A stretch of DNA of 64,000 bases, from the IMG/VR virus record IMGVR_UViG_3300025154_000052, positions 64,001-128,000 of that record; one strand, written 5' to 3'. The position numbers and the translations under genes were made by a program. The notes under the pieces were generated by a model that worked only from the letters and a program-made list of their open reading frames with translations, had not been told where the DNA came from and did no database searches. This DNA comes from a virus. Shown in pieces: positions 31 through 60,089 of the stretch; positions within the stretch are counted from its first letter, which is position 1; each line of letters starts with the position of its first letter.

Positions 31-396
31 TCATTTTTCCTCCCGGGTCGATTCGATCCGATCACAGGTTCGGCAGAGCGCCAGCCCGTCATAGCGCTCA
101 TGAGTCTTGACCGTACTGTCCACATTGAGCGGGACGGTACGAGCCGTGATGGGACGGTTACAACGAGGGCAATGATCGTTGGGTACCGGGCCCACCCAGC
201 GACAGCCGATGAAGTCCATGTAGATGGGGACGACGGCCTGGAGCGCATCGTCCATGGGCTCACCCGGGCACTCAGTAGGCAGACTGAAGTCCTCCAGCCC
301 GTCACACACCCTGCAATGGTGGACGTGCCCATCACAGTACGGGCAGTTCCCGGGACTGCAACACTGGCCCTCACATTTGTGCCAAATGTGGTTCAC
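31..396 (-). CDS. Cys-rich hypothetical phage protein
   Basis: ORF 31..444; GTG at 396 overlaps the upstream stop (GTGA coupling); multiple CxxC motifs. Confidence 0.6.
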   Translation of the reverse strand: MNHIWHKCEGQCCSPGNCPYCDGHVHHCRVCDGLEDFSLPTECPGEPMDDALQAVVPIYMDFIGCRWVGPVPNDHCPRCNRPITARTVPLNVDSTVKTHERYDGLALCRTCDRIESTREEK

Positions 397-1208
397 GCCA
401 GCACCTCCACCACGATAAGTGTGAGATTGTCGGAGGGGTCGCATTCGGCCAGCCGCATGCTGGAATCAGCAACCGAATGACCTACCAGTCGACGACCGAT
501 CTCGTCGTCGTCGAGTTTCCCATGCAGTCCATCGCTGCACAGAAGGAACCGGTCGTGTGGCTCAACGCGGATAGTGGAGACGTCGGGAATCCCGTCGCCA
601 CTACTGCAACCGATGAGCCGCCCGAGCCGGTGCCCGATGCCGTGGTCGATGGTCAGCCTGTGCAGTTTTCCCCACCGCGCCAGGTAGCAGCGGGAGTCCC
701 CGATGTGAGCGATAGTGGCCTTGTAGCGACCGTCAAAAAGCGACAGTCGCAGTGCTACGGCTGTCGTGCCCGGTGCCTTGGACCATCCCTCACGGGGAAT
801 CGCCTTGACCGCTTCGTTTGCCCGGCGAAAACCGAACCGCAGATTGGGCGCGCCGGAGATATGCTCGACCGCTACTCGGGAAGCCTCCTCCCCTTTGGCA
901 TGTCCTCCCATCCCATCGGCCACAATGAATAAGCCGGTAGTACTGTCAGTGTGAAAAGCGTCTTCCTGGTTCTCACGCTCGCCAAGAAGATTCTCCGTCG
1001 ACACATCCAGGAACATAGTGTTGGGATTTCTCAGGGCGTAGACATTGTCCTTCACCCCGAGAACTCCCTGCGATGCCAGGGAGTCGATGGTCTTGGTGTC
1101 GACCCAGCACCGCTCGTCTGGGCTAGAGAGAAGGACAAGGTTTGCCTTGACCAGCCGACAAGGTCCGCGTCGGATCAACTGCAAGGCCGCGGCAGCATTC
1201 GAGTGCAT
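393..1208 (-). CDS. PP2C/PPM-family Ser/Thr protein phosphatase with ~60-aa N-terminal extension
   Basis: Motifs RENQEDA, VADGMGGH, GTT, HIGDSR, LLCSDGL, DNLT; GGAGG RBS and promoter upstream. Confidence 0.92.
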   Translation of the reverse strand: MHSNAAAALQLIRRGPCRLVKANLVLLSSPDERCWVDTKTIDSLASQGVLGVKDNVYALRNPNTMFLDVSTENLLGERENQEDAFHTDSTTGLFIVADGMGGHAKGEEASRVAVEHISGAPNLRFGFRRANEAVKAIPREGWSKAPGTTAVALRLSLFDGRYKATIAHIGDSRCYLARWGKLHRLTIDHGIGHRLGRLIGCSSGDGIPDVSTIRVEPHDRFLLCSDGLHGKLDDDEIGRRLVGHSVADSSMRLAECDPSDNLTLIVVEVLA

Positions 1209-1287: not shown

Positions 1288-1734
1288 TCAGAACAAGGAA
1301 AGTTGAACGACAGCAATAGATGGTAGTGCGGGCATGGGAAGAGGAAGGATGTTCGGTGACTGCTCTTGTCCAGATATATGCTGCTGGCACAAATCCCACG
1401 ATTCGTCATCCAAGGGAATTACGCCAGCCAGCGCAGCGACACAGATGAAGTGGGCCACCGCGCGTTGTGACTCCATGCCTGGCATTCGTCGTGACATGAT
1501 AACGCAACATGACCCTCGCCCTGGGGTTACCTGCCTGACGACTTCCCCTCCTTCAGAAGCCGCTATCACGTCCAGCGCCTCCCAGGAGACGAGAGGTTGC
1601 ACCGTGTTCCATCTGTCGATTGCCTCCCGTGCCCTGTCTCGGCTTCTGCCACTGTAAAGGATGGGGCGATAATTCTCGTTCGGGTACGCTCCGAAGTGTC
1701 CCGGCGCCAGTTCATGAATGATGTAGTCGCTCAT
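1288..1734 (-). CDS. hypothetical protein
   Basis: 148-aa ORF co-oriented in array. Confidence 0.6.
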   Translation of the reverse strand: MSDYIIHELAPGHFGAYPNENYRPILYSGRSRDRAREAIDRWNTVQPLVSWEALDVIAASEGGEVVRQVTPGRGSCCVIMSRRMPGMESQRAVAHFICVAALAGVIPLDDESWDLCQQHISGQEQSPNILPLPMPALPSIAVVQLSLF

Positions 1735-2037: not shown

Positions 2038-3558
2038 TCACGCCTCTTCATACTCCTCAACCTCGTGAATGTTTGTGCCGAGCAGACCCAGTTGGGCCTG
2101 CTCGCGAATCTGGTTCACCTCTCTCAGATACGCGAGTGCGTCTTCTTCGTTCACGTACTTGGTGCGCACGAGTACGTTCTCAAGTGCGTCATACAGGCCC
2201 GCACGTCGGACGGAAGTTCTGTACGACGCTTCAACGTGAAGCAGGTTCCGAATTCGCTCGTACTCCATGGGGTCGCTGCAGCACTCCTTGAGAAGCCCCA
2301 GCGCGTCTTTCTCAAAAGGAATGTCTACAGGTCCGAGAATGTCTCGGTCTGGATAGGGATGTCCAATCTCTTGCTCGTAGATACCGGGTAGGAGGTCTTC
2401 TATCTCGTGTTTGTCGAGCACCCAGATACGGCGGATTTCCCGAAGTTCATCCATGGAGATCAACTCGAGCCGTTCGCCGGCCGGTGCGTATTCGCTCACC
2501 TCGCGTTGAGTGCGCAGGAGTTTCCGTAGCCAGTCGGCTCGAGCCTGTTGAGTATATGGACCGGGGATCGTTCGGTCGTGGAAGAGTTGCACGCGGCCAT
2601 TCATGCGCCTGAAGTCGCGCAGATGGCGATCCTTCTGCATGGCCAGATCGTCACGCAAGCCAAGCAGTGGTTCCATCCACTCCTTTTCCGTGTCGTGCTG
2701 GATCATGGCAGCCATCGACTTGTCTTTTTCGACCAGCGTGCAGACCCAGCACCCGAACCGGCTCGAGCCGCATGACGGCGTTCCCGTATCGACTACCAGT
2801 GGACACTCTCCGGAGTCAGATCCCGCCGCGTACATCCTGAACAGTGCCCGGTTGTGCCACCCCCACGGGTTCGGCACCTGGAAGAGGAACGTCCACACAT
2901 CGTCGTTAGACCAGTCCTCGATGGGCGAGTAGACCCATGAGCCGGGTAGCGACTTGTTCGGGCTCAGGCGGTCACGTATACGCCCTTTCTCGGCTGCCTC
3001 CATGGTACGCCGGCGACTCGCACTCTCAGCCTTGCGAGTACCCAGGCACAGGATGGCCTCACCATGACGGCTGACGACGTTGGTGATGAACTTGTTGGAT
3101 GGCTTGATCTTCAGCCGTTCGGTACACCAGCGCATACCGGGCATGCGAGGGGAGCAATAGCCCTTGCCGATCAGGCATACCCAGAAGCTATCAAGCAGCT
3201 CCGGAGTGAGTTTGTGTGGCTTGATGGGCATTCCCTGCTTGTCAGCAGCAACGCCCATCTGCTCGAGCGACTTACCAACCCAGGCAGCGACCACCGGGTT
3301 CTCGACAAGCGTGTCTGTGCTGATGACGTGGACTGGCTTCTTGATGTCGGCTCGAGGCAGTTTGGCCAGCGCCGTCCAGACGAGTTGTAGTGTCGCAGAG
3401 CTGTCCTTGCCTCCGCTATAGCCCAACACCCATGGAGTGCCATCCTCGAGGTACAGGGTGCGGATCTCCTCCTGCAGGTCAGCGATGGACTGGGCCAGGC
3501 TTACCTTGTCAGACGATTCTTCTTGTTGCAGAAGCGATAACTGACTCATCGATCCCAT
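2038..3558 (-). CDS. dndC: DNA phosphorothioation sulfurtransferase DndC (PAPS-reductase family)
   Basis: PWVLGYSGGKDS, VISTDTLVENP, RWCTERLKIKP, LGTRKAES, ECPLVVDTGTPSCGSSRFGCWVCT, GPYT: all DndC hallmarks; probable start 3549. Confidence 0.92.
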   Translation of the reverse strand: MGSMSQLSLLQQEESSDKVSLAQSIADLQEEIRTLYLEDGTPWVLGYSGGKDSSATLQLVWTALAKLPRADIKKPVHVISTDTLVENPVVAAWVGKSLEQMGVAADKQGMPIKPHKLTPELLDSFWVCLIGKGYCSPRMPGMRWCTERLKIKPSNKFITNVVSRHGEAILCLGTRKAESASRRRTMEAAEKGRIRDRLSPNKSLPGSWVYSPIEDWSNDDVWTFLFQVPNPWGWHNRALFRMYAAGSDSGECPLVVDTGTPSCGSSRFGCWVCTLVEKDKSMAAMIQHDTEKEWMEPLLGLRDDLAMQKDRHLRDFRRMNGRVQLFHDRTIPGPYTQQARADWLRKLLRTQREVSEYAPAGERLELISMDELREIRRIWVLDKHEIEDLLPGIYEQEIGHPYPDRDILGPVDIPFEKDALGLLKECCSDPMEYERIRNLLHVEASYRTSVRRAGLYDALENVLVRTKYVNEEDALAYLREVNQIREQAQLGLLGTNIHEVEEYEEA

Positions 3559-3839
3559 GGCTCCGAGCCAGCCCGCTCCGCGAGTTCTGCCTGGTAGGTT
3601 CCGTATACGTCCCGGCTCACCATGATATAGGCGCGGAGTATGTCGACAATGGCCACCTGTGCTTCTGTAAGGCCTGTCAGAGCGTTATCAACTAATATCT
3701 CGATCAATGTGTCGGGTGTTATGCTCAGCGACGACGCCAGGGCGTCTAGGTGCGCTTTGAGCCGCGCTACGAACGCGGTCTCGAGCGGCTCCAGTGATTG
3801 GGATGGCTTGTTGCGAATGTGGTGGAGTAGAGTGGTCAC
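3546..3839 (-). CDS. small protein, possibly ribbon-helix-helix-like, translationally coupled to dndC
   Basis: GTGA/ATGA overlaps on both sides; LDALASSLSITPDTLIEILVDNAL helix pattern. Confidence 0.55.
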   Translation of the reverse strand: MTTLLHHIRNKPSQSLEPLETAFVARLKAHLDALASSLSITPDTLIEILVDNALTGLTEAQVAIVDILRAYIMVSRDVYGTYQAELAERAGSEPWDR

Positions 3840-4666
3840 GGGTTGGTTCCTTTCGCCAGATTCGCACTGATGGCCGGTCGTGCCCAGAGTCGTTGAAAAC
3901 GAGCCCATTCTTGAGAGACGTTCCCATGTCTGTTACGCCAAACCATGGCCATGGGCCAGAAGCCTGCGTCAACCACCTGTCTCATCCGTTTCTCGGCCGC
4001 TTCAAACGTATCCTTGGCATACCCGCAGAGCACGTATGCTCTCAGGTGATGATTGTTGCGACCATAGCCCGCCTGTTGGAACAGACGACCAGCATCCACC
4101 AATGGCTCGAGGTCGTCGGGCGTGTCGTAAGCGAAGAAGACAGATTCGGGAGCCAGCTTTCGGATCTCTTCCACATGCCAGGGCTGAAGTTTCGCAGCCT
4201 CGAGCCCGCCCGTAAACTCGGCACGGTGACCGACCCGCTTCTGTCGGTGAAGCATGGCGAACACCGCCCTGATGTGCTCCTCAGGGCATGCCAGTAGGTT
4301 GTCGTCGAGGATATTCCAGCCATCGGTGATGGCGAGTTCCCGTAGAGCGCCCTCTCGTTTTGGGACCGAACAGAACCAGCAGCGATTCGGGCAGCCGCGA
4401 GACGTGATGACGTAGCCTGGCTTGAGGTACATACCGGGTGTGAAGTTTCCGCCACGCTCACCAGTCGCTGGCCCACCTATTCTGACCGGTGCGACGTGCC
4501 GCCAGAGATTCTCGAGTCGCTCGGCCACCGGGAGATCCCAGATAAACGCCACGCTGATGTGAACCTCGTCGGCTTCGTCGAACAGGCCTGGCGGGCAATC
4601 GACGCGCACAAGGGCGTCATTCGGTGTGGCTGTGGTTCGTCTCGGGAAGAGTCGGATGATTTTCAT
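3836..4666 (-). CDS. radical SAM domain protein
   Basis: SRGCPNRCWFC CxxxCxxC motif, LDDNLLA, FTGGLEA. Confidence 0.85.
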   Translation of the reverse strand: MKIIRLFPRRTTATPNDALVRVDCPPGLFDEADEVHISVAFIWDLPVAERLENLWRHVAPVRIGGPATGERGGNFTPGMYLKPGYVITSRGCPNRCWFCSVPKREGALRELAITDGWNILDDNLLACPEEHIRAVFAMLHRQKRVGHRAEFTGGLEAAKLQPWHVEEIRKLAPESVFFAYDTPDDLEPLVDAGRLFQQAGYGRNNHHLRAYVLCGYAKDTFEAAEKRMRQVVDAGFWPMAMVWRNRHGNVSQEWARFQRLWARPAISANLAKGTNP

Positions 4667-4681
4667 GCTACTGCACCGAGT

Positions 4682-5191
4682 TCAGCGACCTTCGCCGTCA
4701 ATCTTCGCCTTCCACTCCCACATCTCCATCTGCGTGGGCAGTGGAGCGAGTGGGCGAAGACGGGATCGAGTCGATGTGTAGTTCACGGCGTGCTGGACAC
4801 GTTCGAGAATGGTCAACTCCCAGCGGCGGTCAGACCGGCAGTCCTCGGGCTTGATGATGAGACAATCATCACTCTTTCGCTCGAGGATCGACCACGCATG
4901 CTGGTTGATGACCACGATGAGCGGGTCCTGCCACACCTCGCCCGTGAAGGTGAGCCCATCCATCCCGGCTTCAAAGAACGCGTAGCAGGGACGAGAATAG
5001 GACTTCGGTGGAGGCTCGGACCACGCCTTCTTCCCCTCCAGCAGATAGCCAAGCAGGCCACCTCGAGCGCTATGGCTGGCATCCATGGCAAAGAAGATGG
5101 GGTTGACTGGCTTGCCTTCAGCCTGCCGCACCATGAGCCACGTCTGGATCTTCTCGTACTCGGCGCTCATTGCAGTCTCCGCACTGGACAC
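4682..5191 (-). CDS. hypothetical protein
   Basis: 169-aa co-oriented ORF. Confidence 0.6.
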   Translation of the reverse strand: MSSAETAMSAEYEKIQTWLMVRQAEGKPVNPIFFAMDASHSARGGLLGYLLEGKKAWSEPPPKSYSRPCYAFFEAGMDGLTFTGEVWQDPLIVVINQHAWSILERKSDDCLIIKPEDCRSDRRWELTILERVQHAVNYTSTRSRLRPLAPLPTQMEMWEWKAKIDGEGR

Positions 5192-5424
5192 CTTGGCTTG
5201 AGGTCACAGTTTCCGCACCGGCCCGTCTCGGCCAGTTCTTGACATGATGGCTCGCTGTCGTCGTCCATCAGCATGTCGATGTCAGGCACATCATAGCCAC
5301 GCTCCTTCAACGCCTGGGTGACGGCGTCCACACCCAGTATCTCGATGATCCGATTGGCGAGCTCCACGCGGGCATGGTGGGCCTCGAGCATGACGGCGAC
5401 TGACTCAGTGGTGATGGGCTTCAC
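5167..5424 (-). CDS. hypothetical protein
   Basis: 85-aa ORF, GTGA-coupled to upstream gene. Confidence 0.6.
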   Translation of the reverse strand: MKPITTESVAVMLEAHHARVELANRIIEILGVDAVTQALKERGYDVPDIDMLMDDDSEPSCQELAETGRCGNCDLKPRCPVRRLQ

Positions 5425-5846
5425 TTCCCCTCCACGACGGCGAGGAAGGCTTCGGTCTCTGAGAAGCGTGAAAAATTGGCCCGGGTCGCTCGAGATATAA
5501 CCTCCTTCCGTCGCTGCTCTGGTGTGAACGTGCCGACGTAGATACGATCAATCTCTTCCTGGGAGAGAGCGCGCCAGTCAATGGAGCGTAGACGGTGGCG
5601 CACATCCTGTTCGTACTTTTCCTGTTGACGTATTCGCTCGAGCCGCTCCAGGTTTTCATGATAGCGCTTCGTCGTCGATTCATTGATCGGCTCGAGGGAT
5701 TCCCCTCCACCGTAGCGCCTACCCATCGACGTGAACCGTTTACCGTCTACGTACATCTGGCCCGATGGTGTGATGCGCTCGATAGTGCCGACACTCTCGG
5801 GGTCGCCATGACCCATGTAGACCTTGTCACCGACTTTCCAACTCAC
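5421..5846 (-). CDS. hypothetical phage protein (KOW/SH3-like N-terminus)
   Basis: WKVGDKVYMGH...GTIERITPSGQ pattern. Confidence 0.6.
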   Translation of the reverse strand: MSWKVGDKVYMGHGDPESVGTIERITPSGQMYVDGKRFTSMGRRYGGGESLEPINESTTKRYHENLERLERIRQQEKYEQDVRHRLRSIDWRALSQEEIDRIYVGTFTPEQRRKEVISRATRANFSRFSETEAFLAVVEGK

Positions 5847-6144
5847 TAGTTTCCTCCTTTCTCATCTCCTGCCATCGCAACAACGTGTCGATGGCATCCT
5901 GAATGTCTCGGGTGATGTCTTTGCCCCCACCACGTCCACCGGCCACCAGCAACTTCTTGATGGCGTGCTGAAGGCATGGGTCAGTCACGCCGAGCAGAAG
6001 CAGCACGCAAGCAGTCGAGTCCTTACCACCGGAGAACGCGACGATGATCCGGTCGTAATCGTCAAACAACCACGGCGGCATTACTTCGGGCGGTTCTGTT
6101 ATCAGCGACAACTGCTTCGGCTTCACGTCAGCCCCCATACACAA
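5827..6144 (-). pseudogene. chimeric ORF: PAPS-reductase N-terminus fused to the C-terminus of an unrelated phage protein
   Basis: IIVAFSGGKDSTACVLLLLG joined directly to VTDPCLQHAIKKLLVAGGRGGGKD...WQEM. Confidence 0.7.
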
Positions 6145-6152
6145 CTGAGCTG

Positions 6153-6195
6153 AGTATAGCAGGCTGGTAGCAACAATTCAACGGGTATTTGATTG
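6153..6195 (-). promoter_or_regulatory. sigma70-type promoter with CAATCAAAT variant motif
   Basis: CAATCAAAT-N5-TTGAAT-N17-TATACT. Confidence 0.65.
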
Positions 6196-29835: not shown

Positions 29836-30698
29836 TCCACATCGGACTCGACACCGCCTCGAAATCTCGCGTGGTCGGGGAACTCTGCCAGCGCGAGGAT
29901 ATCAACCGCGTGGTTATCATCTCGACGATTGGCAGAGAGTTTCCCTGCGCTCACAGTCGCTACGAAGTGGTGACTTATGAACAAGTCATCCAATACGCTT
30001 ACTTCTATAGGCTTCTGCAGGAGATAGACAAACGGACGCTGGTTGTAGTCAACGAGTGCCTGCGGACGCAGAACCGGCACGACCTGACCTATAATTGCAT
30101 CCGCCACTTTTTGAACCAGGCCGGGCATGTACTGGTGTTCCAATACCTACCGCTGATCGACACCGCAGAGGACTTCAGTATCCTCTTCGACTTTGACACT
30201 CAGAGCCGGTGGAAGCGGTCGAAGTTCGCGGACCTGCCGCTCGAGGAAGCACGGCTGGAGGTGGCACCTCGACGGCTCGAGTTCAGCAACACCGACGTCC
30301 GCGTGTCGCCCTCGTTCCGTGCCCGCTACCTGGCCGAGAAGGAGCGGCTGTTCGCCAACCTGGGTGCCAGTGACCCCCACACGCTACCACGCAACCTGCA
30401 CCTGTTTACCGGCCGGCCCAAGTTGGGTGCTATGGATCCTTCGAGGCAGTACGTCTGTCGTAACGGGCGTTTCAACGAGCCCAGCCTGACCACCTATGAA
30501 AACGCCCAGCCCGGGCGGGAATACGCCATCTTCGAGTGGTGCCATCGATACATCGACTTCACCGACTTCCTTTGGACGACGGGCCAGGACCGATTTGATG
30601 TACTCAGCACGGACCTGCCGGTAGATCAGTGGTATCTGCAACGGTATACGGATTGGAGGGATAAGTTGGATGCCTGCTATTCAGCGATACAGCGATAA
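29820..30698 (+). CDS. hypothetical protein, possibly a degenerate SF2-helicase domain
   Basis: TLVVVNECLR resembles a degenerate DExx box; no Walker A. Confidence 0.55.
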   Translation: MGEAVIHIGLDTASKSRVVGELCQREDINRVVIISTIGREFPCAHSRYEVVTYEQVIQYAYFYRLLQEIDKRTLVVVNECLRTQNRHDLTYNCIRHFLNQAGHVLVFQYLPLIDTAEDFSILFDFDTQSRWKRSKFADLPLEEARLEVAPRRLEFSNTDVRVSPSFRARYLAEKERLFANLGASDPHTLPRNLHLFTGRPKLGAMDPSRQYVCRNGRFNEPSLTTYENAQPGREYAIFEWCHRYIDFTDFLWTTGQDRFDVLSTDLPVDQWYLQRYTDWRDKLDACYSAIQR

Positions 30699-31797
30699 GA
30701 CGGTTTTGGAAGCTGCCAGGGAGCGCATCGCCTTTCTCTTCGATCACTACGAGACAATCCACGTTTCTATCAGTGGAGGGAAGGACTCGACGGTGCTTGC
30801 TCATCTGGCGCTGCTCGAGGCATATCGACGCGGGCGCAAGGTGGGCCTGTTCCTACTCGACGAGGAGGCCATGTACCAGAGTTCTGTGGACCAGGTCGAA
30901 TACCTGATGAGCCTGTTCCCGGAGAACTGTAATCGCCTATGGCTTCAGGTGCCGTTCTACCTGACCAATGCCACCAGTTTGACAGAGAGCCAGTTACAGG
31001 CATGGGAGCCAGGCAAACACAAGATCTGGATGCGTTCCAAAGGGGAGGGGAATATTAAGGCTCCTCCATGGGCTGGGCCTCCTAAATTCCGAACAGGTTA
31101 TTCCTGGCTGGATTTCTACGGCGTGATCGACAACTTCGAAGCCTGCTATGAGAACACAGTTTTTCTGGTCGGCCTACGAGCTGCTGGCGAGTCCCCCAAC
31201 CGGTGGCGCGCCGTCACCAAGAACCCGGTCACGGTGGCAGGTCAGGATGTCTACTGGGGCACTCAGAAGGGGCGAAATATCGCCTTCTACCCCATCTACG
31301 ACTGGAACTTCAGCGACGTGTGGAAGTACATTGCGATCAACGGATTGCGTTACTCCCGCGTCTATGACTGGCAGTTCAAGAAGGGATTCGGCATTTCAGA
31401 GATGCGCGTTTCGAGCCTCATTCACGAGCGCTCCTTCAAAAGTCTTGTAGAACTCCCGGAGTTTGAGCCGAAGACCTACGACCGGCTGTGCAAACGCATC
31501 AAGGGCATCCAGTTCGCTCAGGAGACCGGCAAGAACGCCAAGATGATGAAGTGTCGGAAGTTGCCGAAGAACTTCACATCCTGGCGCGTTTACCGGAACT
31601 TCCTGCTTGAAACCTACCCGGTAGCCGACCACAAGCCGACCTTCGAGCGGCGTTTTGCCCGACAACTAGATAACGAGTACGTGGCCAGGCAGCAGTGCCG
31701 ACAACTGGTACTCAACGACTACGAAAACAACCTTCATGTGGACAACAAGCCAGACCCACGTGAAGAGTTGATCGAATACTATCGGAGGGTGCTGTGA
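30670..31797 (+). CDS. IbrA/YbdN-like PAPS-reductase family protein (copy 1)
   Basis: VLEAARERI, SISGGKDS, LVGLRAAGESPNR, YPIYDWNFSDVW, MRVSSLIH. Confidence 0.9.
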   Translation: MPAIQRYSDKTVLEAARERIAFLFDHYETIHVSISGGKDSTVLAHLALLEAYRRGRKVGLFLLDEEAMYQSSVDQVEYLMSLFPENCNRLWLQVPFYLTNATSLTESQLQAWEPGKHKIWMRSKGEGNIKAPPWAGPPKFRTGYSWLDFYGVIDNFEACYENTVFLVGLRAAGESPNRWRAVTKNPVTVAGQDVYWGTQKGRNIAFYPIYDWNFSDVWKYIAINGLRYSRVYDWQFKKGFGISEMRVSSLIHERSFKSLVELPEFEPKTYDRLCKRIKGIQFAQETGKNAKMMKCRKLPKNFTSWRVYRNFLLETYPVADHKPTFERRFARQLDNEYVARQQCRQLVLNDYENNLHVDNKPDPREELIEYYRRVL

Positions 31798-32300
31798 AGA
31801 TTCTCTTCCCGTGTCTCAATACCTTCATGGTGCCACGTGTCCGCGTCGTGGCTAACAACTGGAATCCCAACCACGTGAGTTCGGACAAGATGCGGCTACT
31901 CATGCAGTCCATCATCGATAATGGTTGGTGTTTCCCTATTGTGACGGTTCATGATTCGGACGAAGACGTTTATCGTGTGGTCGATGGCTTCCACCGTTGG
32001 ACGATTGCCGGCCCCGAATGGCTAGACTTGCCGGAGGTTCCGATCGTAGTCATCGCTGTGTCTGTTGCCCAGCGGATGGCCGCGACAGTCCAATTCAACA
32101 AGGCACGTGGGGTCCACCAGGTAGATCTTGACGCCGACCTGATCCGGGCGCTCATCGAACAGGGCATGAGCGAGGAAGAGATCTCTTTGCATCTCAGTAT
32201 CGAGATGGAAACCATCCACCGCTACAAGTCACTGACCGGAATAGCGGCTCTCTTTGCCAATGCCACATGGTCCACGGCATGGACCATGGAGGAGACGTGA
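31794..32300 (+). CDS. IbrB/YbdM-like ParB/Srx domain protein (copy 1)
   Basis: ANNWNPN, SIIDNGWCFPIV, VVDGFHR, FNKARG. Confidence 0.9.
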   Translation: MKILFPCLNTFMVPRVRVVANNWNPNHVSSDKMRLLMQSIIDNGWCFPIVTVHDSDEDVYRVVDGFHRWTIAGPEWLDLPEVPIVVIAVSVAQRMAATVQFNKARGVHQVDLDADLIRALIEQGMSEEEISLHLSIEMETIHRYKSLTGIAALFANATWSTAWTMEET

Positions 32301-33376
32301 TCCCGAATGGGTGCAAACTCTACCTACCCAAGAACGTTCTCGAGGCCGCTATTGAGCGTATAGCCTGGATATTCGACCATTACGAGAACGTCTGTGTCTC
32401 CGTCTCGGGAGGAAAGGATAGTTCCGTGCTGGTCGAACTGGCACGGCGTGAGGCCGAGAGACGTGGACGGGTGATTCACGTTTTCTTTCTCGACCAGGAA
32501 GTTGAGTACCGTTCCACGGTTGAAGTCATGCGGTACATCATGACTCGCCCGGCTGTAAAGGCACACTGGGTACAGGTCCCCATCCGAATGACGAACGCCA
32601 CATCCTATGAGGACGAGTTCTTGTATGCCTGGGGACCGGGTGAGGAATGGGTCAGGCCGAAGGAGCCCGACTCCATCCATGAACTCCCGGATGCACCAGA
32701 TCGATTCTACTCGTTCTTCGACTGGTGGGAAGCCCAGTGGCCTGAGAACACAGCGTGTCTTGTCGGTCTTCGGGCCGAAGAGAGTCTAAATCGGTTTGGC
32801 GCTGTGACCCGTCATCCTGCCATTCCAGGCATCAACTGGTCGTCTCCTGGCGGCGGGAAGAGCATTAAGTTCTACCCTCTCTACGACTGGACGTTCGAGG
32901 ACATCTGGACGTTCATCGGCAACGAGGGACCGGTCTACAACCGCGTCTATGACTGGATGTGGGCCAAGGGGCGAAACATCGGAGATCTTCGGGTCTCCAA
33001 CCTCATTCATGAGCGTGCGTTCAAGAGCCTGGCTGACCTTCAGGAGTTCGAGCCCGATACATACGATGCGCTCATTCGCAGGCTAAAGGGTGTGCACACA
33101 GCTGCTCTGTACAGTCGAGAGCAGATGGTGTTCAGCACGAAGAAACGGCCAGCGCAGTTCTCATCCTGGCGAGCGTACCGAGACTTTTTACTCGAGACGC
33201 TTCCGAACGAGAGACGACAACAATTTCTCGAGCGGTTCGGAAATCAACTCCAGAGCGAATCCGTGTTCCGGCAGCAGGTCCGCCAGCTCCTGCTGAACGA
33301 TTGGGAGAACAACATCCCGGTGGTCCAGCAGCCGGATCGGCCGAACCCATTACTGAAGTGGATGGACATCCTATGA
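32267..33376 (+). CDS. IbrA/YbdN-like PAPS-reductase family protein (copy 2)
   Basis: NVLEAAIERI, SVSGGKDS, VGLRAEESLNR, YPLYDW, RVSNLIH. Confidence 0.9.
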   Translation: MVHGMDHGGDVIPNGCKLYLPKNVLEAAIERIAWIFDHYENVCVSVSGGKDSSVLVELARREAERRGRVIHVFFLDQEVEYRSTVEVMRYIMTRPAVKAHWVQVPIRMTNATSYEDEFLYAWGPGEEWVRPKEPDSIHELPDAPDRFYSFFDWWEAQWPENTACLVGLRAEESLNRFGAVTRHPAIPGINWSSPGGGKSIKFYPLYDWTFEDIWTFIGNEGPVYNRVYDWMWAKGRNIGDLRVSNLIHERAFKSLADLQEFEPDTYDALIRRLKGVHTAALYSREQMVFSTKKRPAQFSSWRAYRDFLLETLPNERRQQFLERFGNQLQSESVFRQQVRQLLLNDWENNIPVVQQPDRPNPLLKWMDIL

Positions 33377-33933
33377 GCCAGATCACATTCCCTTGTTGCC
33401 ATGTGCAGATGGTTACTGCTGTTAAGGTGGTATCCAACGACTACAACCCTAACAACGTGGCAACGCCAGAGATGGACCTGCTTGCCCTCTCCATCGAAGA
33501 GGATGGAGTTACTCAGCCCATCGTTGTTGTTTATGATCCGGTCCTGGATCTGTATGTGGTGGTGGATGGCTTCCACCGGTACACCATCCTGACAAAGAGG
33601 TTCAAGTGTCCAGAGATCCCGGTGGTGGTGATCGACAAGTCCATCAATGACCGCATGGCCTCCACCATTCGGCATAATCGAGCTCGTGGCAAGCACAAGG
33701 TAGACATGATGTCTGTCCTTGTCGAGAAGCTTCTCAAACTCGGCTGGAGCGACACCGACATCGCGAAGCAGTTGGGGATGGAGGCAGAGGAGGTGCTTCG
33801 GCTCAAGCAGATGACCGGGTTGGCGGGCCTGTTCAAGGGCCAGGGTTACAGCCGATCATGGACACGCCCGGAAGGGGCGCCGCTATTCCAGGACGAGCCC
33901 ACCAATGATGACGACCGGGAAGACTCCGAGTAG
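33373..33933 (+). CDS. IbrB/YbdM-like ParB/Srx domain protein (copy 2)
   Basis: SNDYNPN, SIEEDGVTQPIV, VVDGFHR, TIRHNRARG. Confidence 0.9.
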   Translation: MSQITFPCCHVQMVTAVKVVSNDYNPNNVATPEMDLLALSIEEDGVTQPIVVVYDPVLDLYVVVDGFHRYTILTKRFKCPEIPVVVIDKSINDRMASTIRHNRARGKHKVDMMSVLVEKLLKLGWSDTDIAKQLGMEAEEVLRLKQMTGLAGLFKGQGYSRSWTRPEGAPLFQDEPTNDDDREDSE

Positions 33934-36873: not shown

Positions 36874-37821
36874 ATGAGGTTTTACCTGGGGACTCATCAG
36901 ACGGGATGGCTGTTCGACCAACGACTGATTGGTGTTCCCTTGTTCGTCAGCCGGAGAACACTGAATCCGTTGCGACTTTCTAAATTAAAAGGCCCACAAG
37001 CACCTGACTCCCGAGTCATCCGTATTGATATGCGCCTCGACGCATCGGGGCGATGGGTTCCCGTTGCAGTAGATGGGGACGGGTGCGTCTTGCCGGTCAA
37101 AAGTCGCAAGCCGTGGCGGCGTGCTGTCACTCGCTGGGCGCTGGACTCTGGTGGATTTCAGGAACTTGATCTGCACGGTAAATGGACGGTACCCGCTCGA
37201 CAGTACGTGGAAGAAGTCCGGATCTGTGCAGAGGAGATTGGCGGTCTTGACTGGGCTGCTATTCAGGACTGGATGTGTGAGCCTCGAATCAGAGAGAAGA
37301 CAGGTCTGTCCACGGAAGAACACCAGAAGCGGACGATTGCATCGTACCTTGAACTTTCCTCCATGGCACCAGATCTGCCGTGGGCACCGGTCATCCAAGG
37401 GTGGTCCCTCTGGTCGTATTTCCGACATCTTGAGATGTACGACAAGGCTGGAATCGATCTGAGGAAGTTCAAAGTGGTGGGTGTGGGAAGTGTTTGCCGG
37501 CGCCAGGGAACGTATGAAGCAGCCGGGATTATGGAGTCCCTTGCTCGAGAAGGCATACGTCTTCACGGCTTCGGCTTCAAGCAACTGGGCTTGAAGATGG
37601 CAGCGGCTTCTATGACTAGTGCCGACAGTCTGGCGTGGTCGTTCGAAGCTCGACGGGCAGCTATCGCCAACGGACAGGCGTTTACTCATCGGCTGTGCCA
37701 TGACCCAATAGCCACTCATCAGAACTGCGCGAATTGTCTTGAGTGGGCGCTGATGTGGCGGCGGTATGTGCTGGATTCAATTGAGCATGGTGAGAGCCAG
37801 GTTCAGATGGGGCTGTTCTAA
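36874..37821 (+). CDS. DpdA-like (tRNA-guanine-transglycosylase fold) deazapurine DNA-modification protein
   Basis: FYLGTH, WALDSGGF, QDWMCEP, PVIQG, GVGSVCRRQ, LHGFG, SADSLAWS. Confidence 0.82.
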   Translation: MRFYLGTHQTGWLFDQRLIGVPLFVSRRTLNPLRLSKLKGPQAPDSRVIRIDMRLDASGRWVPVAVDGDGCVLPVKSRKPWRRAVTRWALDSGGFQELDLHGKWTVPARQYVEEVRICAEEIGGLDWAAIQDWMCEPRIREKTGLSTEEHQKRTIASYLELSSMAPDLPWAPVIQGWSLWSYFRHLEMYDKAGIDLRKFKVVGVGSVCRRQGTYEAAGIMESLAREGIRLHGFGFKQLGLKMAAASMTSADSLAWSFEARRAAIANGQAFTHRLCHDPIATHQNCANCLEWALMWRRYVLDSIEHGESQVQMGLF

Positions 37822-46036: not shown

Positions 46037-46080
46037 AGCCGAAGGCCGGATTCGAACCGGCGACCTGCTGATTACGAATC
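46037..46080 (-). mobile_element. attP core = 3' half of tRNA-Thr(CGT)
   Basis: Reverse complement GATTCGTAATC-AGCAGGTCGCCGGTTCGAATCCGGCCTTCGGCT runs from anticodon loop to acceptor; 5' half absent; TGCTACGG/GCTACTG repeats flank it (~45966, 46154, 46188, 46200, 46265). Confidence 0.85.
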
Positions 46081-46437
46081 GGGAAAGCACACTGGACTAT
46101 TACAGCACTTGTTTCGATCTTTCGCAGGCTTACAAGTGAGTCGCGTTAGCGTATTGCTACTGATTACTGTCCCGAATCAGGTGTCACTGCTACGGGAAAT
46201 GCTACGGGTGCGGGCGAGTATTGTTGGTGCTAGAGCGGCATGAGCGGCAGCGTCTGCAGGAAATGGCTACTGCGTTTGATCATGCCATAGTGGTATCTGG
46301 CTGTCCATTAGATTTCGCTATCTCGAATATCTCCACCCAGTTGGTAGATAATTCTCTGCTTAAAAGTAAAAGAGTATTTTAAAAGTCCTTGACGACCGGT
46401 TGCGCCTCGTCCATACTCCTAGCAGTGCCTTGCTGGA

Positions 46438-59660: not shown

Positions 59661-59748
59661 TCCTGTTCGATTGGCTACACGAGTCCTGCACATGCAGCCG
59701 GTAAGAGTCCGGAAGTTCAGTGCCGTTGAACACGACGGCGCTACCTTT

Positions 59749-59819
59749 GGTCCCATAGTCTAGTGGCAAGACACCGCTCTTTCACGGCGGAAGCCAGGGT
59801 TCAATTCCCTGTGGGATCA
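59749..59819 (+). tRNA. tRNA-Glu(TTC)
   Basis: Full cloverleaf; CCGCT-CT TTC AC-GGCGG; CAGGG-TTCAATT-CCCTG. Confidence 0.92.
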
Positions 59820-59824
59820 TTCAC

Positions 59825-60017: not shown

Positions 60018-60089
60018 GCTTCCATAGCTCAGTGGTAGAGCAGCCGGCTTTTAACCGGCAGGTCGTAGGTTCAAATCCTACTGGGGGCA
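60018..60089 (+). tRNA. tRNA-Lys(TTT)
   Basis: Full cloverleaf; GCCGG-CT TTT AA-CCGGC; GTAGG-TTCAAAT-CCTAC. Confidence 0.92.

Follow-up and report, generated by a model that had tools for sequence, protein, structure and literature searches.

Introduction

What can a phage do with a single component of a bacterial DNA phosphorothioation system? The question is raised by a dndC gene in a 64,000-nucleotide (nt) stretch of groundwater phage DNA, hereafter the window, which comprises bases 64001–128000 of the 137,577-bp IMG/VR virus record IMGVR_UViG_3300025154_000052 (G000). The gene occupies 2038..3549 on the minus strand (positions are those of the window unless another sequence is named) and encodes a full-length orphan DndC of 503 amino acids (aa), recognized by TIGR03183, NF005316 and PADLOC. 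An intact phage DndC that lacks DndD and DndE either plugs into the machinery of the host as a counter-defence or reaches the DNA in another way. Here, we report that the phage encodes a genuine, intact, orphan DndC. Judged from the sequence, this solo protein is most likely an active anti-restriction DNA-modification enzyme and not a remnant. The more specific proposal, that it carries out phosphorothioation against restriction and is coupled to replication in doing so, is the one we favor, with somewhat less than even confidence.

The phage encodes an intact orphan DndC

The identity of the protein was evaluated using profile searches, in which DndC scored 597.5 bits against the TIGR03183 equivalog (cut-off 290.4; 597.8 bits in the search of the whole genome), 610 bits against NF005316 and 578.6 bits against the PADLOC DndC model. 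An alternative in-frame ATG at 3558 would lengthen the protein to 506 aa. Its closest relatives among 5.8 billion proteins were bacterial DndC proteins with 57–63% identity. Because the top bacterial homologue lies in a canonical dndA / dndB-dndC-dndD-dndE locus, phage dndC is, by its sequence, a derivative of genuine Dnd systems. In addition, the SGGKDS PP-loop (S45–S50) and the cysteines C142, C249, C260, C267 and C270 were invariant in an alignment with 19 bacterial DndC proteins. These results bear out the original prediction, made from the letters of the window alone, of a full-length DndC with all hallmark motifs. Furthermore, phage DndC retained 158 of the 165 columns (96%) that are near-invariant, that is, at least 97% conserved among 118 bacterial DndC proteins, and the seven changes were mostly conservative. 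The profile scores, the PP-loop, the cysteines and the retained columns argue together for an intact enzyme under purifying selection. No solved DndC structure was found by sequence in the PDB.

The same residues bear on an alternative explanation, anti-Dnd interference, in which phage DndC, rather than modifying DNA, would titrate host IscS/DndA, DndD or DndE, or present the restriction module with a decoy, and thereby put the phosphorothioate-based defence of the host out of action. DndC is normally part of a stoichiometric IscS-DndC-DndD-DndE complex, which an excess of the protein could poison. The terminal branch of phage DndC is also long (0.86, compared with a median of 0.35 for its bacterial relatives in a quick tree, the only kind of tree reported here). 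Moreover, a phage fusion of a PAPS-reductase domain with Dam confers resistance to Dnd experimentally by an unknown mechanism (Piel et al., bioRxiv 10.1101/2021.05.05.442762). A pure decoy, however, would not need the catalytic and cluster-binding residues or the 96% of near-invariant columns that have been kept, and the clamp-binding-like motifs at the termini, described below, fit a DNA-acting enzyme more easily. The loss of host phosphorothioation would also leave unmodified phage DNA exposed to DndFGH. We consider interference a rather unlikely explanation.

Partner genes are missing from a probably complete genome

Profile searches were extended to the whole 137.6-kb genome. DndD (TIGR03185 and PF13476, AAA_23) gave no match, under controls in which PF13476 scored above cut-off in 14 of 14 genomes and TIGR03185 matched 10, none above cut-off. 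DndE (TIGR03184 and PF08870) gave no match at E <= 1, with the limit that it is a small and divergent protein whose TIGR03184 control matched no control genome. A cysteine desulfurase or other class-V aminotransferase (PF00266, Aminotran_5) was likewise not matched anywhere in the genome. The absence of dndA, dndB, dndD and dndE, noted in the original prediction for the window, holds for the whole genome, and the search for dndD/E elsewhere that it had suggested was negative on a probably complete genome, which upholds the orphan status of the gene.

The phage genome was assembled three times, at 137,577 bp (IMG/VR), 137,572 bp (ENA) and 137,559 bp (JGI), with different breakpoints; the end of the JGI contig falls within a PP2C gene just downstream of dndC. 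Because the three assemblies are of equal length with permuted ends, the ~137.6-kb sequence probably represents the whole genome, in circular or circularly permuted form. Across 9 kb the assemblies differed by just 0–1 single-nucleotide polymorphism (SNP), the identical dndC locus was present on 13 contigs, and phage genes flank it.

These data weigh heavily against the explanation that the orphan is a split operon or an artefact, with dndD/E elsewhere, a mis-binned bacterial fragment or a decaying passenger. The lack of any DndD, DndE, AAA_23 or Aminotran_5 match in 137.6 kb, the permuted assemblies, the 13 contigs, the phage flanks and the intact protein all contradict it, even though the IMG/VR record is labeled linear with a CheckV completeness estimate of 87%. 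It can also draw on the fact that some 'viral' DndC matches (L088, L095 and MT836308) actually carry full dnd operons; these are probably bacterial or prophage-flank DNA. Such an origin is largely refuted for the window locus, and we regard it as scarcely credible. GenBank phages with full-length DndC were rejected as a source of comparison: in MT836308, the sole informative record, the gene is part of a dndB-dndC-dndD operon.

Clamp-binding-like motifs lie at both ends of DndC

Peptides that bind the bacterial beta clamp follow the consensus QL[SD]LF, as in QLSLPL of Hda and QMSLL of MutS, and Pol IV is also among the clamp clients. Terminal pentapeptides of this type occur at both ends of phage DndC: QLSLL at residues 3–7 (3529..3543, minus strand) of a protein that starts MSQLSLL, and QLGLL at residues 486–490 in the C-terminal tail (2080..2094, minus strand), 13 residues from the end. 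The strict pattern Q[LM]xL[FLMI] was scanned across 191 phage open reading frames (ORFs; 43,299 residues) and occurred four times, always at a terminus. Two of the occurrences are those in DndC; the others make up the final five residues of two proteins, QMGLF in DpdA, a member of the 7-deazaguanine DNA transglycosylase family (36874..37821, plus strand; PF23859, 231.8 bits), and QLSLF in a 148-aa ORF lying two genes downstream of dndC (1288..1734, minus strand). Ending exactly in the motif is thus shared by two ORFs, compared with 0.008 expected, and none of 3000 shuffles reached two. The 148-aa ORF has no family match in Pfam, NCBIfam, PHROGs or PADLOC; its C-terminal residues fit the clamp-binding consensus perfectly, and its product might serve as a client, an adaptor or an inhibitor of the clamp.

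A DnaN sliding clamp of the phage itself is encoded outside the window (G000:54593-55696, plus strand; L128:1426-2610; TIGR00663, 203.8 bits). Against GTDB genomes this DnaN showed only 32–35% identity, with best matches in Bdellovibrionota, Oligoflexia and other diverse bacteria, and it was uninformative for identifying the host.

Similar motifs were found in related proteins. In the sister phage L126, DndC begins MQLELL, and QMSLF lies close to the end of a DpdA-like protein. Of nine distinct viral relatives of DpdA, three terminate in QMKLPI or QMRLW. Among bacterial DndC proteins, a broad form of the motif was present within the last 30 residues in 17 of 118, compared with an average of 0.53 when the tails were shuffled (2000 shuffles, none giving more than 4). 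The pentapeptides in these variable tails (proteins P0005-P0089) include QLPLL, QLSLL, QMSLL, QLSFL, QMTLF and similar forms. None of the 118 has an N-terminal motif within its first 30 residues.

In a literature search, no paper was found that connects the sliding clamp with DndC or DpdA, and the connection of Dnd modification to the replisome that the bacterial tail motifs point to may be undescribed. One possibility is that a clamp-tethered solo phage DndC writes phosphorothioate without DndDE, and that DNA-modification enzymes more generally, namely phage DpdA and, in ~14% of the sampled bacterial homologues, DndC, couple epigenetic marking to the replication fork via terminal beta-clamp motifs. 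We grant this bolder proposal a modest chance, and on present evidence would sooner doubt than accept it.

DNA-modification genes in this phage and beside other viral DndC proteins

DndC and DpdA are accompanied by other candidate modification genes. Two tandem pairs of PAPS_reduct+DUF3440 (IbrA-like) and ParB_N (IbrB-like) genes lie at 30670..33933 on the plus strand, so that the phage has three PAPS-reductase-fold PP-loop enzymes including DndC. A Mom-family protein (PF25680, 80 bits) is encoded just before the window (L084:13734-14540, plus strand, corresponding to G000 ~63.0-63.8 kb), farther down the same leftward, same-strand block as dndC and the PP2C phosphatase gene, and is a candidate for a third DNA-modification activity of the phage. 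Methyltransferases complete the modification and anti-restriction set. Neither QueC nor a second, QueE-candidate radical-SAM gene was found in the phage genome; a 7-deazaguanine precursor would therefore have to come from the host.

True DndC orthologues are rare in viral contigs: a profile-based IMG/VR scan yielded 33 confirmed viral DndC loci, many of them truncated or operon-borne. The other full-length viral DndC proteins without DndD/E within 8 kb always lie among DNA-modification genes: DpdA and Dam flank the orphan DndC in L089, an N6/N4 methylase and a helicase in L093, and C5 methylases (two in L090) and DUF5131 in L090-L092. In L126, a metagenomic Mu-like phage contig, DndC, SSB, a DpdA-like gene and a C5 methylase stand in a row, the DpdA-like match scoring 26.2 bits, below the 27-bit cut-off. 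When neighbors were clustered across 32 viral DndC loci (L088-L119), no flanking family other than methyltransferases was shared, and a conserved phage partner beside orphan DndCs was rejected. In the quick tree, the window DndC clusters with the L126 protein (P0113) and with those of L089 and L093. As a separate observation, L089:5976-11859 contains DpdA, a 147-aa ORF, the orphan DndC (58% identical to the window DndC) and then a protein of 846 aa for which the only match is weak and PI3/PI4-kinase-like; DndC overlaps the ORF of this protein, and the Dam methylase lies just upstream.

The recurrence of DpdA raises the alternative that DndC serves the 7-deazaguanine pathway, for example in PP-loop base tailoring, and makes no phosphorothioate. 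QueC is a PP-loop ATPase too, and this phage has a full DpdA yet no QueC or QueE-candidate radical-SAM gene; DpdA also adjoins the orphan DndC in L089, and the weak DpdA-like match is close by in L126. Such a role is hard to reconcile with a protein that shares ~60% identity with operon-encoded DndC and has retained the cysteines specific to DndC. Moreover, DpdA is 33 kb distant in this phage and was not found within 8 kb at most viral orphan DndC loci, and the two genes may merely accumulate in modification islands. We consider a deazaguanine role very improbable.

The genes coupled to dndC

DndC is the last of three head-to-tail minus-strand genes, following a radical-SAM gene (3836-4666) and a 97-aa ORF (3546-3839). 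Direct reading of the junctions, together with independent gene callers that recovered the same 276/97/503-aa genes in three metagenome assemblies, reproduced the GTGA/ATGA-coupled trio of the original prediction. At the first junction, CCGTGA, the radical-SAM stop TGA (3838-3836) overlaps the GTG start of the 97-aa ORF at 3839; at the second, CGATGA, the stop of that ORF (3548-3546) overlaps the DndC ATG at 3549, with GGAG ~11 nt upstream of the DndC start. Overlaps of 4 nt are the norm across the whole dndC gene block. Because the three genes are neighbors in one overlapping string, they are probably co-transcribed, which does not make them demonstrated partners.

The 276-aa radical-SAM protein (3836..4666, minus strand) belongs to the virus-specific family phrog_9298. 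Its CX3CX2C motif (CPNRCWFC; C92/C96/C99) is invariant in 39 homologues, and the Pfam score of the protein, 24.2, is under the gathering threshold of 29.5. In the AlphaFold2 model (predicted local distance difference test, pLDDT, 88.9), a small alpha/beta domain at the N-terminus precedes the partial barrel core with the CX3CX2C motif, and the top Foldseek matches of the model are MgmA, MiaB, TokK and RimO (probability 1.0, query-normalised TM-score 0.53-0.59). The predicted fold is clearly radical SAM. In contrast to the likeness in fold to these four proteins, the phage protein has just 276 aa and its sequence similarity to them is restricted to the cluster loop. The UPF0004 auxiliary cluster and TRAM domain of MiaB/RimO methylthiotransferases are both missing: residues 1-85 hold no conserved cysteine in the 39 homologues, and so no three-cysteine auxiliary cluster, and the protein stops at residue 276, without a TRAM domain. 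QueE was rejected as an identity, since the fold matches MgmA, MiaB and TokK instead. Cys127 and His131 are also invariant in the 39 homologues and are candidate catalytic residues.

The family is common in viruses, with 252 viral relatives in IMG/VR; in its Atlas clusters, viral members make up 67-100%. It is virus-specific, has no known function and occurs in phage replication and DNA-modification modules. Among 80 of the relatives, none has DndC or the 97-aa ORF within 6 kb, and an obligate partnership of the radical-SAM protein with DndC was rejected on this count. After dereplication to 51 other lineages, neighborhoods were compared at the same radius of 6 kb. DNA methyltransferases are immediate neighbors in ~10 of the 51, and a PAPS-reductase-fold gene adjoins the radical-SAM gene in four, on either side and in three mutually very divergent types, with three 4-nt overlaps and one 2-nt gap. 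The other 47 lineages have no PAPS-reductase-fold gene within the radius, and the remaining neighbors are primases, helicases, recombinases or integrases. The pairing is thus repeated without being obligate, which fits swappable cassettes in a modification hot spot. A side observation concerns four human-gut phage contigs (L034, L045, L051 and L073), whose radical-SAM proteins form one sub-lineage (74-85% identical). Their PAPS-reductase genes are 24-25% identical or barely alignable, apart from L045 and L051, which share one type (83% identical). This pattern suggests that the PAPS-reductase genes were repeatedly replaced and their adjacency to the radical-SAM gene was preserved.

The 97-aa ORF (3546..3839, minus strand) begins with GTG, shares GTGA with the end of the radical-SAM gene and ATGA with the beginning of dndC, and lies in the frame with the best codon-usage score of the six. 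It matched no family in Pfam, NCBIfam, PHROGs or PADLOC. Homologue searches, word-based across 5.8 billion proteins and with full HMMER across 1.84 billion representatives, returned, besides the protein itself, just two long repetitive proteins. BLASTP against operon DndE gave E = 0.36 over 11 residues. AlphaFold2 modelling from the single sequence predicted three helices without any strand at modest confidence (pLDDT 67), and Foldseek found no fold match for the model. The original prediction had called this small protein ribbon-helix-helix (RHH)-like with a weak resemblance to DndE and had proposed modelling it against DndE; neither sequence, profiles nor the all-helical predicted fold supports either identity, and both were rejected. 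The 97-aa ORF is, as far as these searches reach, a lineage-specific ORFan. An analysis of selection on it was ruled out by the 0–1 SNP among the assemblies.

Taken together, the trio might make a sulfur-containing or other novel DNA modification without DndDE, and several observations are in keeping with such new chemistry: the genes overlap by 4 nt, the radical-SAM gene abuts a PAPS-reductase-fold gene of three divergent types in 4 of the 51 other lineages, the modelled radical-SAM fold is similar to those of methylthiotransferases (MiaB, RimO) and B12-type methylases, and the review literature contains a claim that DndC chemistry involves a radical-SAM-type step. However, 4-nt overlaps are commonplace in this block, and 47 of the 51 lineages lack a neighboring PAPS-reductase-fold gene and instead adjoin replication, recombination or methylation genes. 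The N-terminal domain lacks the three auxiliary-cluster cysteines, and the 97-aa ORF is unique to this phage. Furthermore, none of the 34 other viral DndC-type loci (L088-L120, L126) has this radical-SAM gene or the 97-aa ORF in its flanks. Of the partnership between the radical-SAM protein and DndC raised in the original prediction, the coupling by overlap stands; the partnership itself is weak, the family being widespread and absent from those 34 loci. New chemistry of this kind appears improbable to us.

Other features of the gene block

Upstream of the trio, the same leftward block contains four small genes (~162, 85, 141 and 103 aa; 4682..6138, minus strand; gene calls), among whose products the 141-aa one alone matches a family, phrog_9662, of unknown function. 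A candidate promoter-like site, TTGAAT and TG-TATACT with a 17-nt spacer, lies at 6153..6181 on the minus strand, in a ~330-nt gap upstream of the block; a promoter and terminator scan of the region gave counts not above those in shuffles. Farther down the block, a PP2C-type Ser/Thr phosphatase is encoded at 393..1208 on the minus strand (PF13672, 38.9 bits, above cut-off; NF033484, partial match). ARAGORN detected tRNA-Thr(CGU) at 46037-46106 (minus strand), tRNA-Glu(UUC) at 59748-59820 (plus strand) and tRNA-Lys(UUU) at 60018-60089 (plus strand), and called no tmRNA at 57–60 kb.

Discussion

The terminal motifs, the phage DnaN, DpdA, the Mom-like gene and the IbrA/IbrB-like pairs lie together in one phage genome and did not figure in the original prediction, and replication-coupled self-modification is therefore the most likely reading of the orphan DndC. 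In the mechanism we propose, the stand-alone, catalytically intact DndC would be one cassette of a multi-layer anti-restriction arsenal of the phage. Its persulfide sulfur would come from a housekeeping cysteine desulfurase of the host, because the phage encodes none. QLSLL and QLGLL would bind the sliding clamp and so bring DndC to replicating phage DNA, where it would install phosphorothioate, with or without the DndD/DndE of a Dnd-positive host. The marked phage DNA could then be taken as 'self' by DndFGH-type restriction.

Several points weigh against this replication-coupled proposal. In every system studied, phosphorothioation needs DndD and DndE besides DndC, according to reviews, and the phage genome has neither. 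A Dnd-positive host is our assumption. The pointers to clamp binding are short motifs only. The DndC proteins of L089 and L093, which belong to the same clade as that of the window, have no N-terminal motif, and a subset of operon-encoded bacterial DndC proteins also has the C-terminal one. Because DndC proteins encoded with their partners carry it too, the C-terminal motif alone is no substitute for DndDE. Finally, the phage-clade grouping is weakly supported in the quick tree, with long branches and a Shimodaira–Hasegawa-like approximate likelihood ratio test (SH-aLRT) value of 88.

The terminal motifs on DndC, DpdA and a neighboring ORF, together with the phage DnaN, provide a concrete hypothesis for the route by which DndC reaches DNA. 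The tail motif of bacterial DndC proteins could bear on how and when Dnd systems mark just a fraction of their sites. In addition, phage dndC is a candidate portable module for shielding engineered phages in laboratory strains that restrict by phosphorothioate-based systems.

Comparison with known systems

Compared with the bacterial DndABCDE/DptBCDE systems, phage DndC is ~60% identical to its counterpart, matches the full-length model and has the same PP-loop and the same iron-sulfur and dyad cysteines. The C-terminal helical region is also shared, and the C-terminal clamp-like motif is present as in a subset of bacterial proteins. In contrast, the phage copy lacks DndA, DndB, DndD and DndE, lies among small early-type genes, and has an extra N-terminal clamp-binding-like motif that occurs in none of the 118 bacterial proteins.

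The nearest phage precedent is the Vibrio phage PAPS-reductase::Dam fusion, for which resistance to Dnd has been reported with its mechanism unknown (Piel et al., bioRxiv 10.1101/2021.05.05.442762). Both phage proteins belong to the PAPS-reductase/DndC superfamily and come without DndDE. The anti-Dnd role is experimental for the fusion, whereas here it is deduced from the genes; the fusion joins a PAPS-reductase domain of ~170 aa to a methylase, whereas the window encodes a complete, unfused DndC orthologue. The common phage PAPS reductases (phrog_424, and IbrA-like proteins with ParB-like IbrB) share the fold, the PP-loop and the location in modification islands, but they are short and DndC-unlike and score far under the TIGR03183 cut-off.

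With regard to clamp clients, phage DndC appears to share with Hda, MutS, Pol IV and DNMT1-PCNA a Q-L-x-L-[FL] pentapeptide at the very N- or C-terminal end and the logic of fork-coupled marking. In eukaryotes, DNMT1 bound to PCNA is a clamp-tethered DNA-acting enzyme, and a clamp-tethered DndC, if that proposal is true, would be its prokaryotic and viral counterpart. Phage self-modification against restriction, built here from one piece of Dnd, is most likely a variant of a known self-modification strategy.

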